From Ktedonobacteraceae bacterium (GTDB taxonomy: Bacteria > Chloroflexota > Ktedonobacteria > Ktedonobacterales > Ktedonobacteraceae), in NCBI GenBank assembly GCA_035568795.1, contig DATMNR010000294.1:1-29397 (forward strand): a stretch of DNA of 29,397 bases. Direction: 5' to 3'. How positions within the stretch are numbered: the stretch's first letter is position 1; each line of letters opens with the position of its first letter. Position numbers and translations under genes: made by a program. The notes under the pieces were generated by a model, which was given only the letters and a program-made list of their open reading frames with translations, had not been told where the DNA came from and searched no databases. Shown one piece after another: positions 1,519 to 23,411 of this stretch.

Positions 1519-3630
1519 ATGAGCACAACTCTGGGCGATGCATTGGTAGACAGTCAGGCAAAGGGGCGTTCCGATCGACCAGGAGCGCCAGACACTCGTT
1601 TGCAGGGACGGTGGCTTGCTCTTCTTCGTGTGGCGTGGGTTGTACTGAGCGTCCTTGCTTTCATTATCTTCATTGCTAGTCTTCCTGGGTACTTTACGGA
1701 CCAGCTGAAGTCGTACCTGGTCGGCTACGCTGTCTTCCTTCTCGCCCTGGATATTTTCGTCGCATCGGTATGGTTCTTCGTCGCTCTCCTGATCTTCTGG
1801 CGCAAGTCCAACGATTGGCTGGCACTACTGGTCTCATTTATGCTGGTGTTGCAAGGCGCAAATACCACCATCAACCCATTGAATAATAGCCCCTCGCTCT
1901 GGCTGCTGCCGGCAGTAATACTGAACCAGCTTGCTTTCTTTGTGCTCCTCTTAGTCCTCTGCCTCTTCCCGACAGGACGTTTTGTGCCACGCTGGATAGG
2001 TTGGCTCGCAGTGATGTTCTCAGCTCTGTGGCTTGCAGCGGTACTCGGTAAAATCTTCGACTTCTTACCTGTATTGAATAATCCGCTCTTTATTCTTGTG
2101 TTGTACTGCTTATTTGGGGGCTTCGTCGTCGCTCAACTCTATCGTTACCACTCCGTCTCCAATCGAATAGAACGCCAGCAGACCAAGTGGATCGTCTTCG
2201 GAGTCACCGCGACCTACCTCATAGAGTTCGTGTTTAGTTTCAGTTCGGTCCTCTTTCAATCAGTCTTGTCTTCGACTTCACTAGCTATCCTGATTCTCTT
2301 ACCACTTGGGAACGCTGTCCCAATCCTAATTCCGCTCTCCTTTGGCTTTGCGATTCTGCGCTACCGGCTCTGGGACATTGATATCATCATTCGCCGCACG
2401 CTGGTCTACGGCACGCTCACTGCCTGTGTGGTTGCACTCTACATGCTTATCGTCGTCGGGCTTGGCGCGCTGCTGCAAGCACGAGGCAACCTGGGCTTGT
2501 CCCTGCTGGCTACAGGCCTCATTGCCGTGCTCATTCAGCCATTGCACACCCGTCTCCAGCGGGCTGTGAACCGTCTGCTCTATGGGGAACGCGATGAACC
2601 CTACAAGGTCATTTCCCGCCTGGGACAACGCCTGGAGGCGACGCTGGCACCGGAGGCCGTGCTGCCCACGATTGTCGAGACTGTGACCCAGGCGCTCAAG
2701 CTCCCGTATGCCGCCATCAGCTTGAAGCAGGATGGCGAGGACGTGATTGCAACATCCTCTGGCCAAGCTGCGGATGAGCTGACACGCCTGCCGCTGATCT
2801 ATCAGAGTGAACACATCGGCGACCTTTTGCTTGCTCCGCGCGCTCGTGGCGAAACCTTCTCGTCAGCAGACCGGGACTTGCTCGCTGACCTGGCCCGTCA
2901 AGCTGGCATCGCCGTTCAAGCTGTCCACCTGACCACGGATTTGCAGCGTCTGACGACCGAACTGCAATCCTCGCGCACGCGCCTGGTCACCGCGCGTGAG
3001 GAAGAGCGGCGCCGGCTGCGCCGCGATCTGCATGACGGTCTCGGCTCGGTGCTGGCTTCCCTCAATTGGCGTGCCGGAGCATTGCGCCTGCTGCTCTCGC
3101 GCGACCCGGTAGCTGCCGATGCTCTCGTGGTCGAACAACAAACCACCATTCAAGCGGCGATTGGCGATATTCGCCGCCTGGTCTACGACCTGCGCCCCCC
3201 TGCCCTGGATGAACTGGGGTTGATTGGAGCTATCCGCGAACGTGCGGCAAAGCAAAGTGCGCCGACAGAGCGTGACAGCATCCTCGGGCTGCATATAGAC
3301 GTAGTGGCACCCGATCAGCTGCCAGCGCTTCCCGCAGCCGTCGAGGTTGCCGCCTACCGCATCGTGCAGGAGGCCCTGACCAACGTGGCGCGCCATGCCC
3401 AGGCTCACAGCTGTTGTGTCTGCCTCTCGTGCGAAAACGACCTGCTGCACGTCGAGGTCAGCGATGATGGCATCGGGTTGCCGGAGAGCTATCGCGCCGG
3501 GGTCGGAGTGCTCTCACTGCGCGAACGAGCTGCAGAACTGGGCGGGACAAGCGAGATTGCACGCATGCCCGAAGGTGGGACGTGTGTGCAGGCCTGCCTG
3601 CCGCTTTTTACACATGACCAGCAGCTGTGA
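1519..3630 (+). CDS. Membrane sensor histidine kinase (multi-TM + GAF-like + HisKA_3 + HATPase_c)
   Basis: About 9-10 hydrophobic segments, H-box ERRRLRRDLHDGLG, N-box QEALTNVARHA, G1 SDDGIG and GGT. Start set at ATG 1519 (the ORF track starts at 1465). Confidence 0.92.
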   Translation: MSTTLGDALVDSQAKGRSDRPGAPDTRLQGRWLALLRVAWVVLSVLAFIIFIASLPGYFTDQLKSYLVGYAVFLLALDIFVASVWFFVALLIFWRKSNDWLALLVSFMLVLQGANTTINPLNNSPSLWLLPAVILNQLAFFVLLLVLCLFPTGRFVPRWIGWLAVMFSALWLAAVLGKIFDFLPVLNNPLFILVLYCLFGGFVVAQLYRYHSVSNRIERQQTKWIVFGVTATYLIEFVFSFSSVLFQSVLSSTSLAILILLPLGNAVPILIPLSFGFAILRYRLWDIDIIIRRTLVYGTLTACVVALYMLIVVGLGALLQARGNLGLSLLATGLIAVLIQPLHTRLQRAVNRLLYGERDEPYKVISRLGQRLEATLAPEAVLPTIVETVTQALKLPYAAISLKQDGEDVIATSSGQAADELTRLPLIYQSEHIGDLLLAPRARGETFSSADRDLLADLARQAGIAVQAVHLTTDLQRLTTELQSSRTRLVTAREEERRRLRRDLHDGLGSVLASLNWRAGALRLLLSRDPVAADALVVEQQTTIQAAIGDIRRLVYDLRPPALDELGLIGAIRERAAKQSAPTERDSILGLHIDVVAPDQLPALPAAVEVAAYRIVQEALTNVARHAQAHSCCVCLSCENDLLHVEVSDDGIGLPESYRAGVGVLSLRERAAELGGTSEIARMPEGGTCVQACLPLFTHDQQL

Positions 3631-3645
3631 GGAAGGAGAAGAGCC

Positions 3646-4290
3646 ATGGCACCTGTGCGTATCCTGATTGCCGATGACCATCCACTGGTGCGGAGTGGAC
3701 TGCGTGCGCTCCTCGGGGCGGCAGAGGATATGGAGGTGGTAGGCGAGGCGGCGACGGGCGAGGAGGCAGTGACGCTGGCCGCGAGTTTGCAACCGGAGGT
3801 GATCGTGATGGACCTGCGCATGCCAGGCATCAATGGCATCGAAGCCACACGCCGCATTATGCAAGCCCATCCGCAGATTCGTATCCTCGTCGTCACGCTC
3901 TTTGAGGACGACGACTCGGTGTTCGCGGCCCTGCGTGCTGGAGCCCGCGGCTACCTCCTCAAGGATGCCAACGAGGTTGAGGTGCTGCGAGCGATCCGCG
4001 CCGTGAGCAGCGGGGATGCCATTTTCAGTGCTACGATTGCCCAACGCCTCATTGATTTCTTCGCTACACCTCGTCCAGCCCAAGCTGCCCTCCCATTTCC
4101 CGATCTGACGGACCGTGAGCGTGAGATTCTCACCCTCATCGCCCAGGGACGAAGTAACGCCGAGATTGCGCAATCCCTGGTCATCAGCATGAAGACGGTG
4201 CGTAATTATATTTCGAGCATCTTCAGCAAACTGCAGGTAGCCGACCGCTCCCAGGCCATCATCCGGGCGAGAGAGGCTGGTTTAGGGTAA
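3646..4290 (+). CDS. NarL/LuxR-family response regulator
   Basis: REC domain ADDHPLVR...MDLRMP...LLKD and LuxR HTH LTDREREILTLIAQGRSNAEIA...KTVRNYISSIFSKL. SD GGAG upstream; cognate of the adjacent kinase. Confidence 0.95.
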   Translation: MAPVRILIADDHPLVRSGLRALLGAAEDMEVVGEAATGEEAVTLAASLQPEVIVMDLRMPGINGIEATRRIMQAHPQIRILVVTLFEDDDSVFAALRAGARGYLLKDANEVEVLRAIRAVSSGDAIFSATIAQRLIDFFATPRPAQAALPFPDLTDREREILTLIAQGRSNAEIAQSLVISMKTVRNYISSIFSKLQVADRSQAIIRAREAGLG

Positions 4291-4604
4291 CTGCCGTTTG
4301 TCCTGGCTCCTCTGAGCGTTGGTTTTTGGCTTGAAAAGAAACATCGGTGGGAAATTGCTCTTGATACCGTAACGCCTTTCCCTGTGATCAAGCTTTGTTG
4401 ATGAAGGATGAGAACGCTTGCATTCAGAGATAGAAACATCATAACTTTTTTCTCTGTTTTCTATAACAGCCCCTTATAGACACTAGCGATGTATTCTTCT
4501 GCTCATTTTTTGGCGACAATCGCGTGTGTTTCCTCCTGGCTCAACAAACCACCGCTTTATAAGACGGGAGAATATAGCTACTACATAAGGTATCATAGCA
4601 AGGC

Positions 4605-19483: not shown

Positions 19484-19882
19484 TTAATGATACCGAAACG
19501 CATATGGCAACAAATCCTCAATTGTGAAATCTCGCATATCTCCATCAACATAAATAATGGCATGCGGAGCAAGATCAGCCAACCATTGGCGGCAAGCTCC
19601 GCAAGGAGTGCGATCCTGAATAGGTGCCCCTTGCGGCACATCGATACACGCTACCGCAACCTGGGTAACCGATCCCGCTACCACACCAGCCGCCATCGCA
19701 GCAGCTAGAGCAGAACGTTCCGCGCACAAAGTCAAACCATAACTCGATATCTCGACATTCACACCGATATAGGTCTTTCCATCTGCCACTACCGCAGCGC
19801 CAACCCGAAATCGTGAGTAGGGGCAATGCGCTTTTAACGCGACTTCACGAGCTAGAGACAAAAGTTCTTCGCGAGTAATCAT
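19484..19882 (-). CDS. cdd: Cytidine deaminase (homotetrameric type)
   Basis: PYSRFRVGAA, GVNVE..SYGLTLCAERSA and PCGACRQ. ATG 19882 has SD GGAG (the ORF track uses TTG 19897). Confidence 0.95.
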   Translation of the reverse strand: MITREELLSLAREVALKAHCPYSRFRVGAAVVADGKTYIGVNVEISSYGLTLCAERSALAAAMAAGVVAGSVTQVAVACIDVPQGAPIQDRTPCGACRQWLADLAPHAIIYVDGDMRDFTIEDLLPYAFRYH

Positions 19883-19937
19883 GGCTTTCTTCTCCAATCA
19901 GTTCAAAAGATAACATTTTTGGCTCTACGTACACCAA

Positions 19938-19946
19938 ATTGTACCA
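19938..19946 (-). promoter_or_regulatory. Extended -10 element (TGGTACAAT) for cdd
   Basis: TGn-TACAAT about 55 nt upstream of ATG 19882. Confidence 0.5.
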
Positions 19947-20008
19947 CGATGTTACTCCCTGAATTTCATCGCGTTGAAGCAATTAGAACAAGTTTATCAA
20001 CAAAAGGC

Positions 20009-20182
20009 CTGCCTTTTAGGGAGTGCAGAGGGTTACAGGGTCTGGGGGACCCGTCATGTATACTCTTTTCGGGGTGTGGAATATCCCCATTGGCGTGGAC
20101 TTTAGCAAATTTCTTGCCGCCTTCGGCGACAAGGATGAAGAACAAAGCAGTCCCCAAGCACTCTCCTCTCTCCCAAAGGCAG
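20009..20182. ncRNA. Candidate structured RNA (sRNA or 5' leader), unassigned
   Basis: Closing stems 20009-20016/20175-20182, 20019-20023/20170-20174 and 20027-20031/20165-20169 enclose three to four hairpins. Confidence 0.35.
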
Positions 20183-20233
20183 TTTGAATCGCACACCCTA
20201 TTTTTAAGAGCAGGATTGTAGGAGGAAACACGA

Positions 20234-20932
20234 GTGAAAATCATGGTGGCGGACGATGATCGCGACATGGTTGACATGCTGAGCTACTGGCTCAAAGGGC
20301 ATGGATACGATGTAATACGTGCATTTGACGGCGAACAAGCCATTAAGCGCTGGCGTGAAACATTACCAGATCTTGTCATCCTGGATGTGCAAATGCCCAA
20401 ACTGGATGGCTTCGAGGTATGTCGTCAAATGCGAAGTGAAACCAATTCAATGGTTTTAATACTGACCGCACATGATCGTGAAGATGACGAGATACGTGGA
20501 TTAGAAATGGGAGCCGACGATTATCTGAGAAAACCATTTAGTCCTCGGCAGCTACTAGCTCGCATTAAAGCAATTATGCGTCGCTCAAACAGTGCAAAGG
20601 GGTCCTCCAATTCATCAGCAATTACTGTCGGCCCGGTGACGTTAGATGCAATGCGCCATGAGGTAACTCGGGAAGGCGCAAAAGTGCGTCTAACTCCCAC
20701 TGAGAGCCGTCTGCTCCACTTGCTCATTACACATACCGGCCAGGTATTAACAACTGATATGATTATCGAGCGAGTTTGGGGATATGACGAAGCTGGTGAC
20801 TCCGGCCTTGTGAAAACGCACATTCGCCATTTGCGTCAGAAAGTCGAACCTGAAGCCAACAATCCACAATATATTATGACAGTACCAGGTGTTGGATATA
20901 CCTTTACAGCACCCATCACGATTGAATCCTGA
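20234..20932 (+). CDS. Orphan OmpR/PhoB-family response regulator
   Basis: MVADDD, ILDVQMP, YLRKPF, and wHTH LTPTESRLL...VKTHIRHLRQKVE...IMTVPGVGY. SD AGGAGG with GTG start; no adjacent kinase. Confidence 0.95.
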   Translation: MKIMVADDDRDMVDMLSYWLKGHGYDVIRAFDGEQAIKRWRETLPDLVILDVQMPKLDGFEVCRQMRSETNSMVLILTAHDREDDEIRGLEMGADDYLRKPFSPRQLLARIKAIMRRSNSAKGSSNSSAITVGPVTLDAMRHEVTREGAKVRLTPTESRLLHLLITHTGQVLTTDMIIERVWGYDEAGDSGLVKTHIRHLRQKVEPEANNPQYIMTVPGVGYTFTAPITIES

Positions 20933-20944
20933 GATGTATAGCGC

Positions 20945-20984
20945 GAAGCGATTGAGATAACACATACGTTATCTCAATCGCTTC
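20945..20984. repeat. Perfect 17 bp inverted repeat (terminator or operator)
   Basis: GAAGCGATTGAGATAAC-acatac-GTTATCTCAATCGCTTC. Confidence 0.85.
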
Positions 20985-21005
20985 ATCTTCATCTAGCTTT
21001 ATTTC

Positions 21006-21045
21006 TTCTTAACCGATTCTCGTTATTCTTAACCATTCTTCAACG
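21006..21045 (+). promoter_or_regulatory. 10-bp-phased direct repeats upstream of a TATACT -10 element (21078-21083)
   Basis: TTCTTAACCG (21006), ATTCTCGTTA (21016), TTCTTAACCA (21026), TTCTTCAACG (21036). Confidence 0.5.
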
Positions 21046-21125
21046 CACTCTGCATTTTTTCCATAGCTTTTCCGCAGTATACTCTTCTACATAATCTATT
21101 TTCTTGATCTAAAGGCATCTGTATC

Positions 21126-22106
21126 ATGACATATGTAGAAAGAGGAACGTTAACATCGGCCGTCACATATCTTGATAGTCCAGCAAGCGATCTATGCACG
21201 TGCTTGCCACTTTCCAGACTACATCAGGGGCCTTGGGTGGATCATGCAGAAAATTCCGAACAGTTGACGGAAGTGACTCTGGCAACACCTGAAATGAATA
21301 GTTCTTTGCGCTCTCAACTCGAGAACTACTTCCCACGTTCCTCATCTCTCAGCGTTTTGCTATTGCACATTTCGCAACTTGAGCATATTCATATCACACC
21401 GAAATCAGCGATCTTACATAAACGGCTTCGCTATCACGTTTCAGCCAGTCTCCTGAAACAAATTCTTATCAATGTGCACCGCACGATTAGAAGCAGCGAT
21501 CACATTCTAGTGCATATAGGCGCTAGCATCGCTATCATACTACCTGATGTTGATCAAGAAGGATCACAGGCTCTGCTTCAACGCGTGTATCATAGTATCA
21601 ACCTCCTTCAACCTGAGACAGTAATTCCACCCTTGAAACGCGAAACTGATATTACTTTAGGAATCGGGTCTTACCCCAAACCCGGAGCTTCACTGGAAGA
21701 ACTACTCTACCAGACTGGTTTTATTGCATCCAGGATAATACTGCGGCCGGCTGTTACGACTCAATTACATGGTACCAGGTCGATCGGTGTAGTGGAGGTA
21801 AATCTGTTAAATCGCCATCAAAATGAAGAGGATGATTCTTGTGTTGCTGCTCGCACTAGTGGCATCCCATTCATGCTATTACCTGCGCGACTGTCATCGC
21901 GATTAAAGCATCTCATTCCATATGCTCTGGCGTGTGAACTGCGTTGCGCACCCGTCGGCCGTGATCATAATCGCCTGACTATTGCAATGGCTTTTCCTAC
22001 TGATACACAGGCTATTGATCGCTTGCGTTCGGCAACTGGCATGACCATTTTTCCTGTATCATGTGAAACCAAAGCGCTCGATAGCTTGCTAGAACAGAGT
22101 TGGTAA
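21126..22106 (+). CDS. Degenerate GGDEF-like domain fused to a T2SSE_N (PilB/MshE N-terminal type) subdomain
   Basis: GGDEF fold pattern SLSVLLLHI...IRSSDHILVHIGASIAIILPD...ITLGIGSYP...LEELL. C-terminal GIPF...LIPYALACELRCAPV...LTIAMAFPTD..AIDRLRSATGMTIFPV. Confidence 0.78.
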   Translation: MTYVERGTLTSAVTYLDSPASDLCTCLPLSRLHQGPWVDHAENSEQLTEVTLATPEMNSSLRSQLENYFPRSSSLSVLLLHISQLEHIHITPKSAILHKRLRYHVSASLLKQILINVHRTIRSSDHILVHIGASIAIILPDVDQEGSQALLQRVYHSINLLQPETVIPPLKRETDITLGIGSYPKPGASLEELLYQTGFIASRIILRPAVTTQLHGTRSIGVVEVNLLNRHQNEEDDSCVAARTSGIPFMLLPARLSSRLKHLIPYALACELRCAPVGRDHNRLTIAMAFPTDTQAIDRLRSATGMTIFPVSCETKALDSLLEQSW

Positions 22107-22112
22107 TCAATA

Positions 22113-22227
22113 TCTCACCTGAGAACCGCTAATTTTAACCAAATCACAACTATTCCTCAACACAAAAGCGTATCAACAATGGTTACAATAACATGCAATG
22201 AGACAGTAATGTGTATCACCTGATACA
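22113..22227. promoter_or_regulatory. Two related palindromes (TCA-CC-TGA core), candidate operators
   Basis: TCTCA-cc-TGAGA at 22113-22124 and TGTATCA-cc-TGATACA at 22212-22227. Confidence 0.45.
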
Positions 22228-22291
22228 AAATATTCAGCATTCACTTTTTATCTAAGTGCATCGAATTAGTATATCCAAGGAGAGAACAAAG

Positions 22292-22513
22292 ATGGTCGTG
22301 CAAGTGATCCAGGATGATGTCCTTTTAACATTCAAAGAAGCTATGAGCTACCTGCGGGTAAGTCGCTCTACCTTGTATCGCCTGATGTGGTCTGGACAAC
22401 TTACTGGCCATAAAGTCGGCAGCACATGGCGGTTCTATCGCGACGATCTCCGCGCCTGTGTAGGCAGTGAAGTACCAATGATGAGCATGCAGCCCAGTAT
22501 TGCCGTAAGCTAG
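22292..22513 (+). CDS. Small MerR-like HTH protein (excisionase / HTH_17 / BldC family)
   Basis: LLTFKEAMSYLRVSRSTLYRLMWSGQLTGHKVGSTWRFYRDDL; SD AAGGAGA; 73 aa. Confidence 0.9.
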   Translation: MVVQVIQDDVLLTFKEAMSYLRVSRSTLYRLMWSGQLTGHKVGSTWRFYRDDLRACVGSEVPMMSMQPSIAVS

Positions 22514-22615
22514 CCAGGTTCTCTTTTCTCTAAGCTAGACAATACTCCAATCTTTTCATATATGTATTGAAAAAGATTGATCTCCTCTTATTTGGAGTCT
22601 ATGTATTACGAACAA

Positions 22616-22644
22616 TGAGGTCGAAGGGCAATCGTTCGACCTCA
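22616..22644. terminator. Probable terminator between convergent genes
   Basis: Perfect 10 bp stem TGAGGTCGAA / TTCGACCTCA. A second imperfect inverted repeat lies at 22548-22579. Confidence 0.6.
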
Positions 22645-22679
22645 AATTTCTATTTCAGACATCTTAAAGATATATTTAA

Positions 22680-23411
22680 TTAGTACCGATCAATATACGT
22701 TATCTTCCAGCTTCCTCCTATTTTTTCAACAGTGACCAACACAGGATAGGAATTTTTCGCTCTTGTCACATTCACTGTATAGCTCCACTGAGACAAATCA
22801 GGTCCTGAACTAGAATTCGTGCCAAAGGTTGGCTGCCCTATAACATAAGATAGAAGCGTACCACTCTGTGTATCGCTTGTCTGTACCTGCTTAAGATAGT
22901 CTTCCAGTGTCAAACCGCTAATCTGCAAGTTCTGATAAGCTTGAGCATATCTTTGATTTTGAACATCTTGAAAGTAAGTATTCACAACATCCGTTGCTCC
23001 AGTTTCCTGCGTGATTACGCTATCAAACAGTTGGTACGCTCCCCAGCCGCATAATCCACACGTAGCAAGAAAACCTACACTAAAAATGGAAACGATAATC
23101 CAAACCCACTTGTAGGACTTTTTAATCGGCGCTTGCATTTCAGGATAACGCGTTGGCACAGAAGGAGGAGCTTGAACACCCATCGTGTTCAGTTGTGCCT
23201 GCGTGCCGGGTACGCCTGGCTCTAACGGTAATGCAGGGCGCTCTGCTGGAATTTGCATATTTTGATAATAGGAAGGTGGTGGCGGATAAACCATCCCTTG
23301 CTGATCAGCAGGAAATTCATAAAGTGGTATTGCCGCCTGTTCATTCGTGCCTTCGATTTCCGCGTTCTCGCGCTCTATTTTTTCTTTCGGCTGCTGGCCA
23401 GAGGACTGCAT
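22680..23411 (-). CDS. Single-pass membrane protein: Pro-rich N-terminus, extracytoplasmic NTF2-like (DUF4878-like) domain
   Basis: YPPPPSYY region, TM WVWIIVSIFSVGFLATCGLCGWG, then VVNTYFQDVQNQRYAQAYQNL...LVTVEKIGGSWKITYI. Confidence 0.75.
   Translation of the reverse strand: MQSSGQQPKEKIERENAEIEGTNEQAAIPLYEFPADQQGMVYPPPPSYYQNMQIPAERPALPLEPGVPGTQAQLNTMGVQAPPSVPTRYPEMQAPIKKSYKWVWIIVSIFSVGFLATCGLCGWGAYQLFDSVITQETGATDVVNTYFQDVQNQRYAQAYQNLQISGLTLEDYLKQVQTSDTQSGTLLSYVIGQPTFGTNSSSGPDLSQWSYTVNVTRAKNSYPVLVTVEKIGGSWKITYIDRY

Follow-up and report, generated by a model that had tools for sequence, protein, structure and literature searches.

Genes and features of the locus

In the 29,397-nucleotide stretch of Ktedonobacteraceae DNA that was analyzed (hereafter the window; contig C294 of the host genome, G000), three regulatory genes lie on the same strand (Table 1). 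They encode an OmpR-type response regulator (designated RR), a protein with a degenerate GGDEF domain and a GspE-N domain (designated Mid; gene, mid) and a 73-amino-acid (aa) HTH_17 protein (designated HTH). An earlier reading of the sequence alone (the sequence-only reading) had described three same-strand regulatory genes with repeats or palindromes between them and without an integrase or att-like context, and had proposed that, in a mycelial Ktedonobacterium, they could form an independently assembled counterpart of the circuit around BldC in Streptomyces. The descriptive part of this reading was borne out. The genes are present at the coordinates given in Table 1. The host genome is a 4.0-Mb metagenome-assembled genome (MAG; 86% complete), which named relatives place as an uncultured member of Ktedonobacteraceae in the GTDB sense. 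The cultured genera of this family are mycelial spore-formers. Neither an integrase nor a tRNA gene was found in the window. Conservation across genera extends to the genes that flank the trio. The rest of the window is core chromosome and encodes MinCD, FtsH, a LuxR-type two-component pair, fatty-acid oxidation enzymes, a thiolase and cytidine deaminase (cda).

Table 1. Positions of the three genes and of the sequence features around them in the window
Feature	Position	Strand	Details
RR leader (long 5′ leader of the transcript)	20003-20233	+	Metatranscriptome contigs start at 20003 (X16), 20007 (X17), 20027 and 20037
RR gene	20234-20932	+	Pfam: Response_reg, 3.3e-33; Trans_reg_C, 1.4e-25
Perfect 17-bp hairpin	20945-20984	+	Inverted repeat I1, just past the RR stop codon; likely RR terminator
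12-nt direct repeat TTCTTAACC	21003-21014, 21023-21034		Spacing 20
Phased direct repeats upstream of mid	21007-21044	+	TCTTAACC (21007-21014), a degenerate unit, TCTTAACC (21027-21034), TCTTCAAC (21037-21044)
TATACT, candidate -10 of mid	21078-21083	+	TATACT or TATAAT kept at this position in most genera aligned
mid gene	21126-22106	+	Pfam: GGDEF, 2.7e-6 (residues 109-195); MshEN/T2SSE_N, 1.2e-12 (residues 246-324)
Upstream block of HTH, about 110 nt	22100-22210	+	TTAACC (22135-22140), ACAAC (22146-22150), TCAAC (22157-22161); TACAAT (22184-22189)
Palindrome TGTATCA..TGATACA in the HTH leader	22207-22232	+	Inverted repeat I3; conserved in only part of the genera
HTH gene, 73 aa	22292-22513	+	Pfam: HTH_17, 2.2e-13
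10-bp hairpin between the convergent HTH and 243-aa membrane-protein genes	22616-22644		Inverted repeat I4; likely terminator

The trio is a real, vertically inherited chromosomal regulatory module and not the remnant of a mobile element. Strongly selected and of ancient standing in the family, with extreme purifying selection acting on RR and HTH, the module was previously undescribed, and the main new result is a direct-repeat cis-element that is shared by the upstream regions of mid, of an unlinked mid paralogue and of HTH.

Conservation and assembly of the trio

Synteny was tallied for the best 80 named loci. The full trio was present in 65 of these, so the linkage supposed by the sequence-only reading holds in other genomes. 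RR and HTH without mid were found in four loci, HTH alone in five (each with 5 kb or more of sequence available upstream), and mid and HTH in one, where an RR orthologue was not found upstream; five further loci are cut by contig ends. Seven cultured genera are represented among the hosts of the full trio, which comprise, among others, Ktedonobacter racemifer, five Dictyobacter species, Tengunoibacter, Ktedonosporobacter rubrisoli, Thermosporothrix hazakensis and Ktedonospora formicarum. Genome G022 supplies one locus of this tally (L011) and one of the pstS promoters described below (L154), and no conclusion rests on it. Nineteen loci, which represent about 18 genera, kept the wider order cda<-RR->mid->HTH-><-membrane protein. 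The identities to the window proteins in these loci were 86-99% for RR and 75-99% for HTH but only 34-82% for Mid.

In Thermogemmatispora the order is cda<-RR->HTH and mid is absent; RR and HTH are 85% and 86% identical to those of the window, respectively. Likewise, cda<-RR->HTH without mid was found in all eight species sampled from genus g34. Because the adjacency of RR and HTH outlasts the loss of mid, it is the most persistent linkage of the module and mid is dispensable.

Among 301 Chloroflexota genomes sampled, orthologues of RR (at least 64% identity; paralogues, at most 53%) were found only within the order Ktedonobacterales. In a sister family (f2), RR adjoins a mid-type gene. The HTH orthologue of this family is about 74% identical and has the same invariant core, and it is unlinked from RR (43 kb off in one genome). 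It is flanked by an EpsU-like GT2 glycosyltransferase gene on one side and by genes for a polysaccharide chain-length determinant and a tyrosine autokinase on the other. The arrangement of HTH, chain-length determinant and kinase recurs in family f5, which is outside the order and in which an RR orthologue was not found. The pairing of RR and mid in f2, together with the location of HTH in an exopolysaccharide cluster in f2 and f5, therefore indicates that the trio was put together secondarily. From these comparisons, RR and mid appear to be the older pair, which was later joined by an HTH lineage formerly housed in an exopolysaccharide cluster. To this extent, the proposed independent assembly of the module was supported.

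HTH is a single-copy gene in nearly all family genomes sampled. One genome (G008) has three extra HTH paralogues (52-54% identical) on contigs C521, C687 and C6. The sister-family HTH genes in exopolysaccharide clusters are at loci L022 (3017-6763), L024, L116 and L117, and the orthologue in family f4 has an N-terminal extension (154-aa open reading frame).

Direct repeats shared by three upstream regions

Upstream of mid, the consensus of 48 family loci is TCTtAACC-N12-TCTTAACCAtAccacAAC. The sites are at 0, +20 and +31 and are followed by TATACT or TATAAT. In the sister family f2, the same box arrangement is present between RR and mid. The pattern TCTYAAC-N13-TCTYAAC occurs four times in the 4.0-Mb host genome, against approximately 0.1 expected by a rough estimate; thus, the intergenic repeats that the sequence-only reading had pointed out are beyond chance. 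Two of the four sites are upstream of the two mid-type paralogues, and these sites are conserved across genera. The unlinked paralogue has the same 0/+20/+31 layout in its own genome, and ATCTTAACC-N12-GTCTTAAC-N6-TAACC was found at this gene in 11 of 12 other family genomes.

In a 16-locus alignment, the upstream block of HTH was better conserved than the coding sequence of mid. Its consensus has three boxes at 11-nt spacing (TTAACC, GCAAC and CTTAAC), about 20 nt before TAC(T/A)AT. The boxes persist where HTH is unlinked from RR, namely in f2 (where they read TTCTTAACCtgTTCTCAACCcggTCTCAAT and HTH is 43 kb from RR) and in family loci L039 and L080, and they are kept in the HTH promoter of Thermogemmatispora. 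In family f5, in which the RR orthologue was not found, no boxes were seen upstream of HTH. In some genomes of another family (f1), the pair of chain-length determinant and tyrosine kinase is present, and neither HTH nor boxes were found near the pair.

Direct repeats of the TCTTAACC type with a phase of 10-11 nt are thus common to the upstream regions of mid, the mid paralogue and HTH. Because the boxes are shared and are kept where HTH is unlinked, one common controlling factor is likely. As judged from the promoter sequences, mid, its paralogue and HTH are most likely under one direct-repeat-binding factor, and this regulatory link would predate the physical linkage of the genes.

RR is a strongly conserved orphan regulator

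The RR gene starts with GTG and has a conserved TAGGAGGA ahead of the start codon. RR is 85-99% identical across the family. Its receiver domain is complete, with an intact acid pocket and the phospho-acceptor D51, and no change was seen at D7, D8, D51, T78 or K100 in 24 orthologues. The C-terminal winged helix (PF00486 Trans_reg_C, residues 149-224, 1.4e-25) has the recognition helix LVKTHIRHLRQK, which is invariant in 24 sequences, including those of the sister family. A histidine kinase gene was not found adjacent to RR, which is thus an orphan.

The best NCBIfam matches of RR were MtrA (227 bits), RpaB (223 bits) and WalR/YycF (216 bits), all below the equivalog cut-offs. Like these proteins, RR is an OmpR-type regulator that is very strongly conserved throughout its lineage. 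Unlike them, it has no adjacent kinase, and its orthologues are confined to Ktedonobacterales among the 301 genomes sampled; its recognition helix also differs from theirs. The score of RR against the PhoB equivalog TIGR02154 was 203 bits (cut-off, 296 bits) and was the sixth best in the genome. The possibility that RR is the PhoB, PhoP or SphR equivalog was ruled out because this score is below the cut-off and another response regulator (C8:5775-6497) sits after the pst operon. Two RR paralogues of the host (C480:4058-4756 and C14:612-1358) have the same type of helix (LVKPHIRHLRQK and LIKAHIRHLRQK) and altered acid pockets (DVD and DPD). About 1 kb past the C14 paralogue, ahead of a DegT aminotransferase gene, there is a TTCAACCtgTTCTTAACC site.

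Mid has lost the GGDEF signature and keeps an RxxD motif

In the AF2 model of Mid (pLDDT 80.6), a GGDEF fold (approximately residues 22-206) is followed by a disordered linker and an alpha/beta domain of the GspE/PilB N-terminal type (residues 237-326); the segment ahead of the latter domain (residues 212-234) is disordered in the model. Foldseek matched GGDEF structures at E values of about 1e-5. For the C-terminal domain, it retrieved the N-terminal domains of XpsE and PilB (from a PilB-PilZ complex), the GSPIIA domain of PilF, and MshE (2d27, 7lko, 9g1w and 5htl), and Pfam matched PF05157 MshEN to residues 246-324 with 48 bits.

The sequence-only reading had assigned a cyclic di-GMP (c-di-GMP) arm to the module, and this assignment stood in part. 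IGASI replaces the GG(D/E)EF signature in the window. The signature is likewise missing from each of the 66 further orthologues aligned, where the sequence at this position varies (for example, EGTGA). The 24-residue MshEN motif, RLGxx(L/V/I)(L/V/I)xxG(L/V/I)(L/V/I)xxxxLxxxLxxQ, was found in none of 68 Mid orthologues, and a looser form was likewise absent from all 68. Therefore, Mid is neither a cyclase nor a binder of the MshEN type. In contrast, R122-x-x-D125 is invariant and is the sole possible c-di-GMP site; it precedes the signature position by five residues, the canonical spacing of an I-site. Mid evolves fast (34-82% identity among orthologues) yet keeps this motif. It is plausible from this conservation that Mid is a c-di-GMP receptor acting through RxxD.

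PopA and PelD are degenerate-GGDEF c-di-GMP receptors that use an RxxD I-site. Mid resembles such receptors in its GGDEF fold, the lost signature and the kept RxxD. However, it is fused to a domain of the GspE/PilB N-terminal type and not to receiver or GAF domains. Its C-terminal 80 residues resemble the N-terminal domains of MshEN, PilB and XpsE in Pfam match and fold, but consist of the alpha/beta subdomain only, without the 24-residue motif and without an ATPase domain. A characterized protein with this architecture was not found among the 120 best of 477 homologues, which have automatic names or are unnamed.

The unlinked mid paralogue (C28:7796-8692) also encodes an MshEN domain. In the MAG, only one strong GGDEF domain (E ≤ 1e-20) was found, at C74:2822-3283. 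By this domain count, the c-di-GMP network of the organism appears small, and Mid and its paralogue are candidate effectors. The window itself encodes, at 730-1401, a stand-alone protein of the HD-GYP type.

HTH resembles BldC in fold and architecture

The ATG start codon of HTH is preceded by a Shine-Dalgarno sequence, AAGGAGAGAA, that is conserved across genera. A longer 85-aa frame with a GTG start is not supported. Residues 11-53 are nearly invariant across families (alignment A1). The AF2 model has a core with pLDDT >90 and comprises helices 14-21 and 25-34, a beta hairpin, helix 50-58 and a disordered tail. Thus, HTH is a stand-alone winged HTH protein of the MerR/Xis type, from which coiled-coil and effector domains are absent.

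The relation of HTH to BldC was judged by pairwise scores and fold ranks, the HTH_17 domain being only about 50 aa long. The top Foldseek match of HTH was BldC (TM 0.70 by target, 29-31% identity, E about 1e-2), and close behind were the RdfS excisionase, Pukovnik Xis, SoxR and RacA (MerR DNA-binding domains). By sequence, HTH matched BldC with E = 1.5 (phmmer) and E = 1.6 (profile). Among the 13 HTH_17 domains of the genome, HTH ranks tenth in similarity to BldC; nine of the other twelve score higher. In BldC (PDB 6AMA and 6AMK), which like HTH is a stand-alone MerR-like winged HTH protein of about 70 aa without dimerization or effector domains, Arg30 contacts bases and Phe21, Trp31 and Leu43 form the hydrophobic core of the head-to-tail contact (PMC5859096). 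In HTH, R30 is invariant, Phe21 and Trp31 are replaced by L21 and L31, which are hydrophobic, and Leu43 aligns to G43 or a gap and is not clearly kept. The ancestral context of HTH, an exopolysaccharide cluster, is a further difference from BldC. The term "BldC-like" used in the sequence-only reading is therefore acceptable for the fold and the small stand-alone architecture but not for orthology. With the models at hand, a similarity of fold and architecture, as distinct from orthology, is weakly supported.

HTH also matches excisionase profiles (TIGR01764, 1.6e-12; phrog_66, 9e-10; MADS mad1, 4e-9). Together with the closeness of RdfS and Pukovnik Xis in the fold search, these matches could mean that HTH is the recombination directionality factor of a mobile element, or a defence component, with incidental neighbours. 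However, integrase, tRNA and att context are absent and the flanks are core across genera. Furthermore, HTH is a single-copy core gene that tracks the divergence of the family at 75-99% identity, and its MADS1 score (44) is below the cut-off (80). We consider the excisionase reading to be extremely improbable, in agreement with the sequence-only reading, which had doubted a phage excisionase.

Transcription of the three genes

Transcription was inspected in contigs of four soil metatranscriptomes. The orientation of these contigs is not recorded, some may stem from carried-over DNA, and a gap in coverage is not evidence that transcription is absent. Contigs covering RR begin at 20003-20037, and one contig on the RR side ends at 21009. 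The depth was zero over 21028-21215 in all four runs. The mid gene was covered thinly and in one run only. HTH was covered in three of the four runs, with one X16 contig spanning 22210-22540, and the depth was zero past 22626. Together with the hairpins, the contigs fit a separate transcript for each of the three genes and a long leader on that of RR, although this pattern is no more than suggestive.

Candidates for the box-binding factor

Phased direct repeats are a hallmark of OmpR/PhoB regulators. From sequence, two such proteins of the host are candidates for binding the boxes: RR itself, for which we see a nearly even chance, and the PhoB-like regulator linked to pst, which is a rather less probable binder. 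In favour of RR, the boxes lie directly downstream of its gene, its recognition helix is invariant and the boxes accompany it in the three clades compared. Several observations weigh against this assignment. The correlation between the presence of RR and the HTH boxes covers three clades only. The core of the box equals the cyanobacterial SphR PHO box, CTTAACCT, which has at least three tandem 8-bp units with 3-bp linkers (PMC1906773). In the host genome, related repeats lie ahead of pstS, of the adjoining lipoprotein gene and of a phosphoesterase gene, where three are in tandem, and on contig C8 the pst operon is immediately followed by the gene for a PhoB-like response regulator with the canonical RTVDVHVRWLREK helix (C8:5775-6497). 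TTAACA boxes are retained at pstS in family f3 even though the trio RR is missing there, and the binder may therefore be PhoB rather than the adjacent RR. A search of five other family genomes for the strict tandem YTYAACC-N3-4-YTYAACC gave nine matches, fewer than the 15 obtained with the reversed control, and therefore a large regulon is not shown.

These observations could be explained if the boxes are PHO boxes bound by the PhoB-like regulator. Mid, its paralogue and HTH would then belong to a phosphate-starvation regulon, and the orphan RR would have other targets. The PHO boxes of SphR, PhoB and PhoP resemble our elements in their direct 8-bp CTTAACC(T/A) units, 11-bp periodicity and position upstream of the -10 sequence (PMC1906773), and TTAAC repeats with 11-nt spacing are upstream of pstS in 22 family genomes as well as in f3. 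There is also a precedent: the in vivo targets of S. coelicolor PhoP include bldC, cdgA and cdgB (PMC3479208). However, the flanks of the mid-type sites are fixed (T at -2, 0.92; C at -1, 0.91; C at +6, 0.97), whereas the pstS sites favour A at +6 (0.62) and have a tandem TTAACA layout with unlike flanks. In the promoters of mid and its paralogue, the sites are laid out as 0/+20/+31 instead of the tandem 0/+11/+22, and their TC and CC flanks are fixed; RR, the regulator beside mid, is not a PhoB equivalog. Moreover, f5 has HTH, no trio RR and no boxes that we could see. In f3, boxes were not found at the phosphoesterase promoters, which speaks against a phosphate regulon but did not settle the choice between PhoB and the trio RR. 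Overall, phosphate control through PhoB seems possible but doubtful.

The phosphate locus of the host (C8:137-6497; L130) has three TTAAC boxes, the gene for a 380-aa lipoprotein, more boxes, and genes for PstS, PstC and onward to the PhoB-like regulator. Conservation of the pstS promoter, GTTTAAC-N6-CTTAACATATCCATAAAGCATAGTTAAT, was seen across 22 genomes of the family. At C35:3391-4318 (L131), three tandem TCTYAACC boxes precede a gene of the Phosphoesterase family that is split into two frames (3507-3830 and 3842-4318); the split may be due to a frameshift or an assembly error.

A proposed regulatory circuit

Our best explanation of the locus, which we hold tentatively and at a little under even odds, is a Ktedonobacteraceae regulatory module of three transcription units, in which RR acts through the boxes on mid, its paralogue and HTH. 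The orphan RR would be phosphorylated by an unlinked kinase and then bind the repeats as head-to-tail oligomers, thereby activating the three genes. Mid would sense c-di-GMP via RxxD and relay the signal through its GspE/PilB-N-type protein-interaction domain, and the small winged HTH protein would be the DNA-binding output. Because the HTH lineage lies inside an exopolysaccharide cluster in the sister groups, the targets of HTH probably include matrix or envelope genes, which would be relevant to mycelial multicellular growth. In evolution, the move of the HTH gene to a place beside its regulator would date to the base of the family, and mid would be an accessory that was lost in some lineages. 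In this proposal, box binding and c-di-GMP sensing are predictions from sequence. A predicted complex of RR, Mid and HTH scored 0.01, which counts neither for nor against binding.

The sequence-only reading went further and proposed a convergent analogue of the Streptomyces circuit, in which a BldC-like protein, with inputs from phosphorylation and c-di-GMP, oligomerizes on direct repeats and times sporulation. Several features are consistent with this idea: members of the family grow as mycelia and form spores, HTH (73 aa) is a stand-alone winged HTH protein that is closest in structure to BldC and retains Arg30, its sequence is nearly invariant, as would suit a global regulator, and c-di-GMP enzymes are few (one strong GGDEF domain and the HD-GYP protein in the window). 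However, the similarity of HTH to BldC is at the family level only (E = 1.5; tenth of 13 paralogues), the Leu43 of the BldC head-to-tail contact has no clear counterpart, the conserved repeats are TTAAC boxes of the OmpR/PhoB type and not AATTxxxxC, and mid is dispensable in Thermogemmatispora. Because the boxes resemble PHO boxes and the ancestral context of HTH is exopolysaccharide synthesis, a role of the module in phosphate or matrix (exopolysaccharide) control fits at least as well as one in sporulation. Thus, the notion of a convergent BldC circuit is only partly supported, and we regard a sporulation timer of this kind as unlikely. A bolder version of our own proposal is that an ultra-conserved BldC-fold protein from an exopolysaccharide cluster was relocated beside an orphan RR and a new type of c-di-GMP receptor, in which a dead GGDEF domain is joined to the N-terminal domain of a pilus ATPase, under one direct-repeat element. 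This small HTH protein would be a master switch for matrix and multicellularity, convergent with BldC, BldD and c-di-GMP in Streptomyces and possibly gated by phosphate; at present we think it unlikely.

Ktedonobacteria are the second great lineage of bacteria that grow as mycelia, form spores and are rich in antibiotics. In our literature searches, we found incidental papers but no work on developmental regulation or on regulation by c-di-GMP in this group. The module supplies three strongly conserved candidate regulators and a defined cis-element, and cultured hosts are available in Ktedonobacter racemifer, Dictyobacter, Thermosporothrix and Thermogemmatispora, the last of which is a natural control without mid. 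The comparison with Streptomyces (BldC, c-di-GMP and the control of bld genes by PhoP) can thus be put to a direct test. If binding of c-di-GMP to Mid is demonstrated, the combination of a dead GGDEF domain with GspE-N would be a new type of c-di-GMP effector.

Other features of the locus

An Rfam search of 19800-22800 in E-value mode found no known RNA family and gave only a sub-threshold Peptidase-S11 match inside mid. In a scan for consensus promoters and terminators, the number of sites was no greater than in shuffled sequence, and PADLOC gave weak generic matches only. The sequence-only reading had also suggested a structured RNA in the RR leader. This candidate is not family-wide: an insertion of about 130 nt in the leader (approximately 20040-20185) is present only in the window and is absent from the 15 loci of other genera in the 16-locus alignment. 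The insertion is covered by metatranscriptome contigs.

Between cda and RR, a conserved block, CCAAATTGTATCATGATGTTAC, lies at 19934-19956. This block and the palindrome in the HTH leader have the word TTGTATCA in common in the consensus of the other genera (TTGTACCA in the window), and from this word the two may represent a second shared site.

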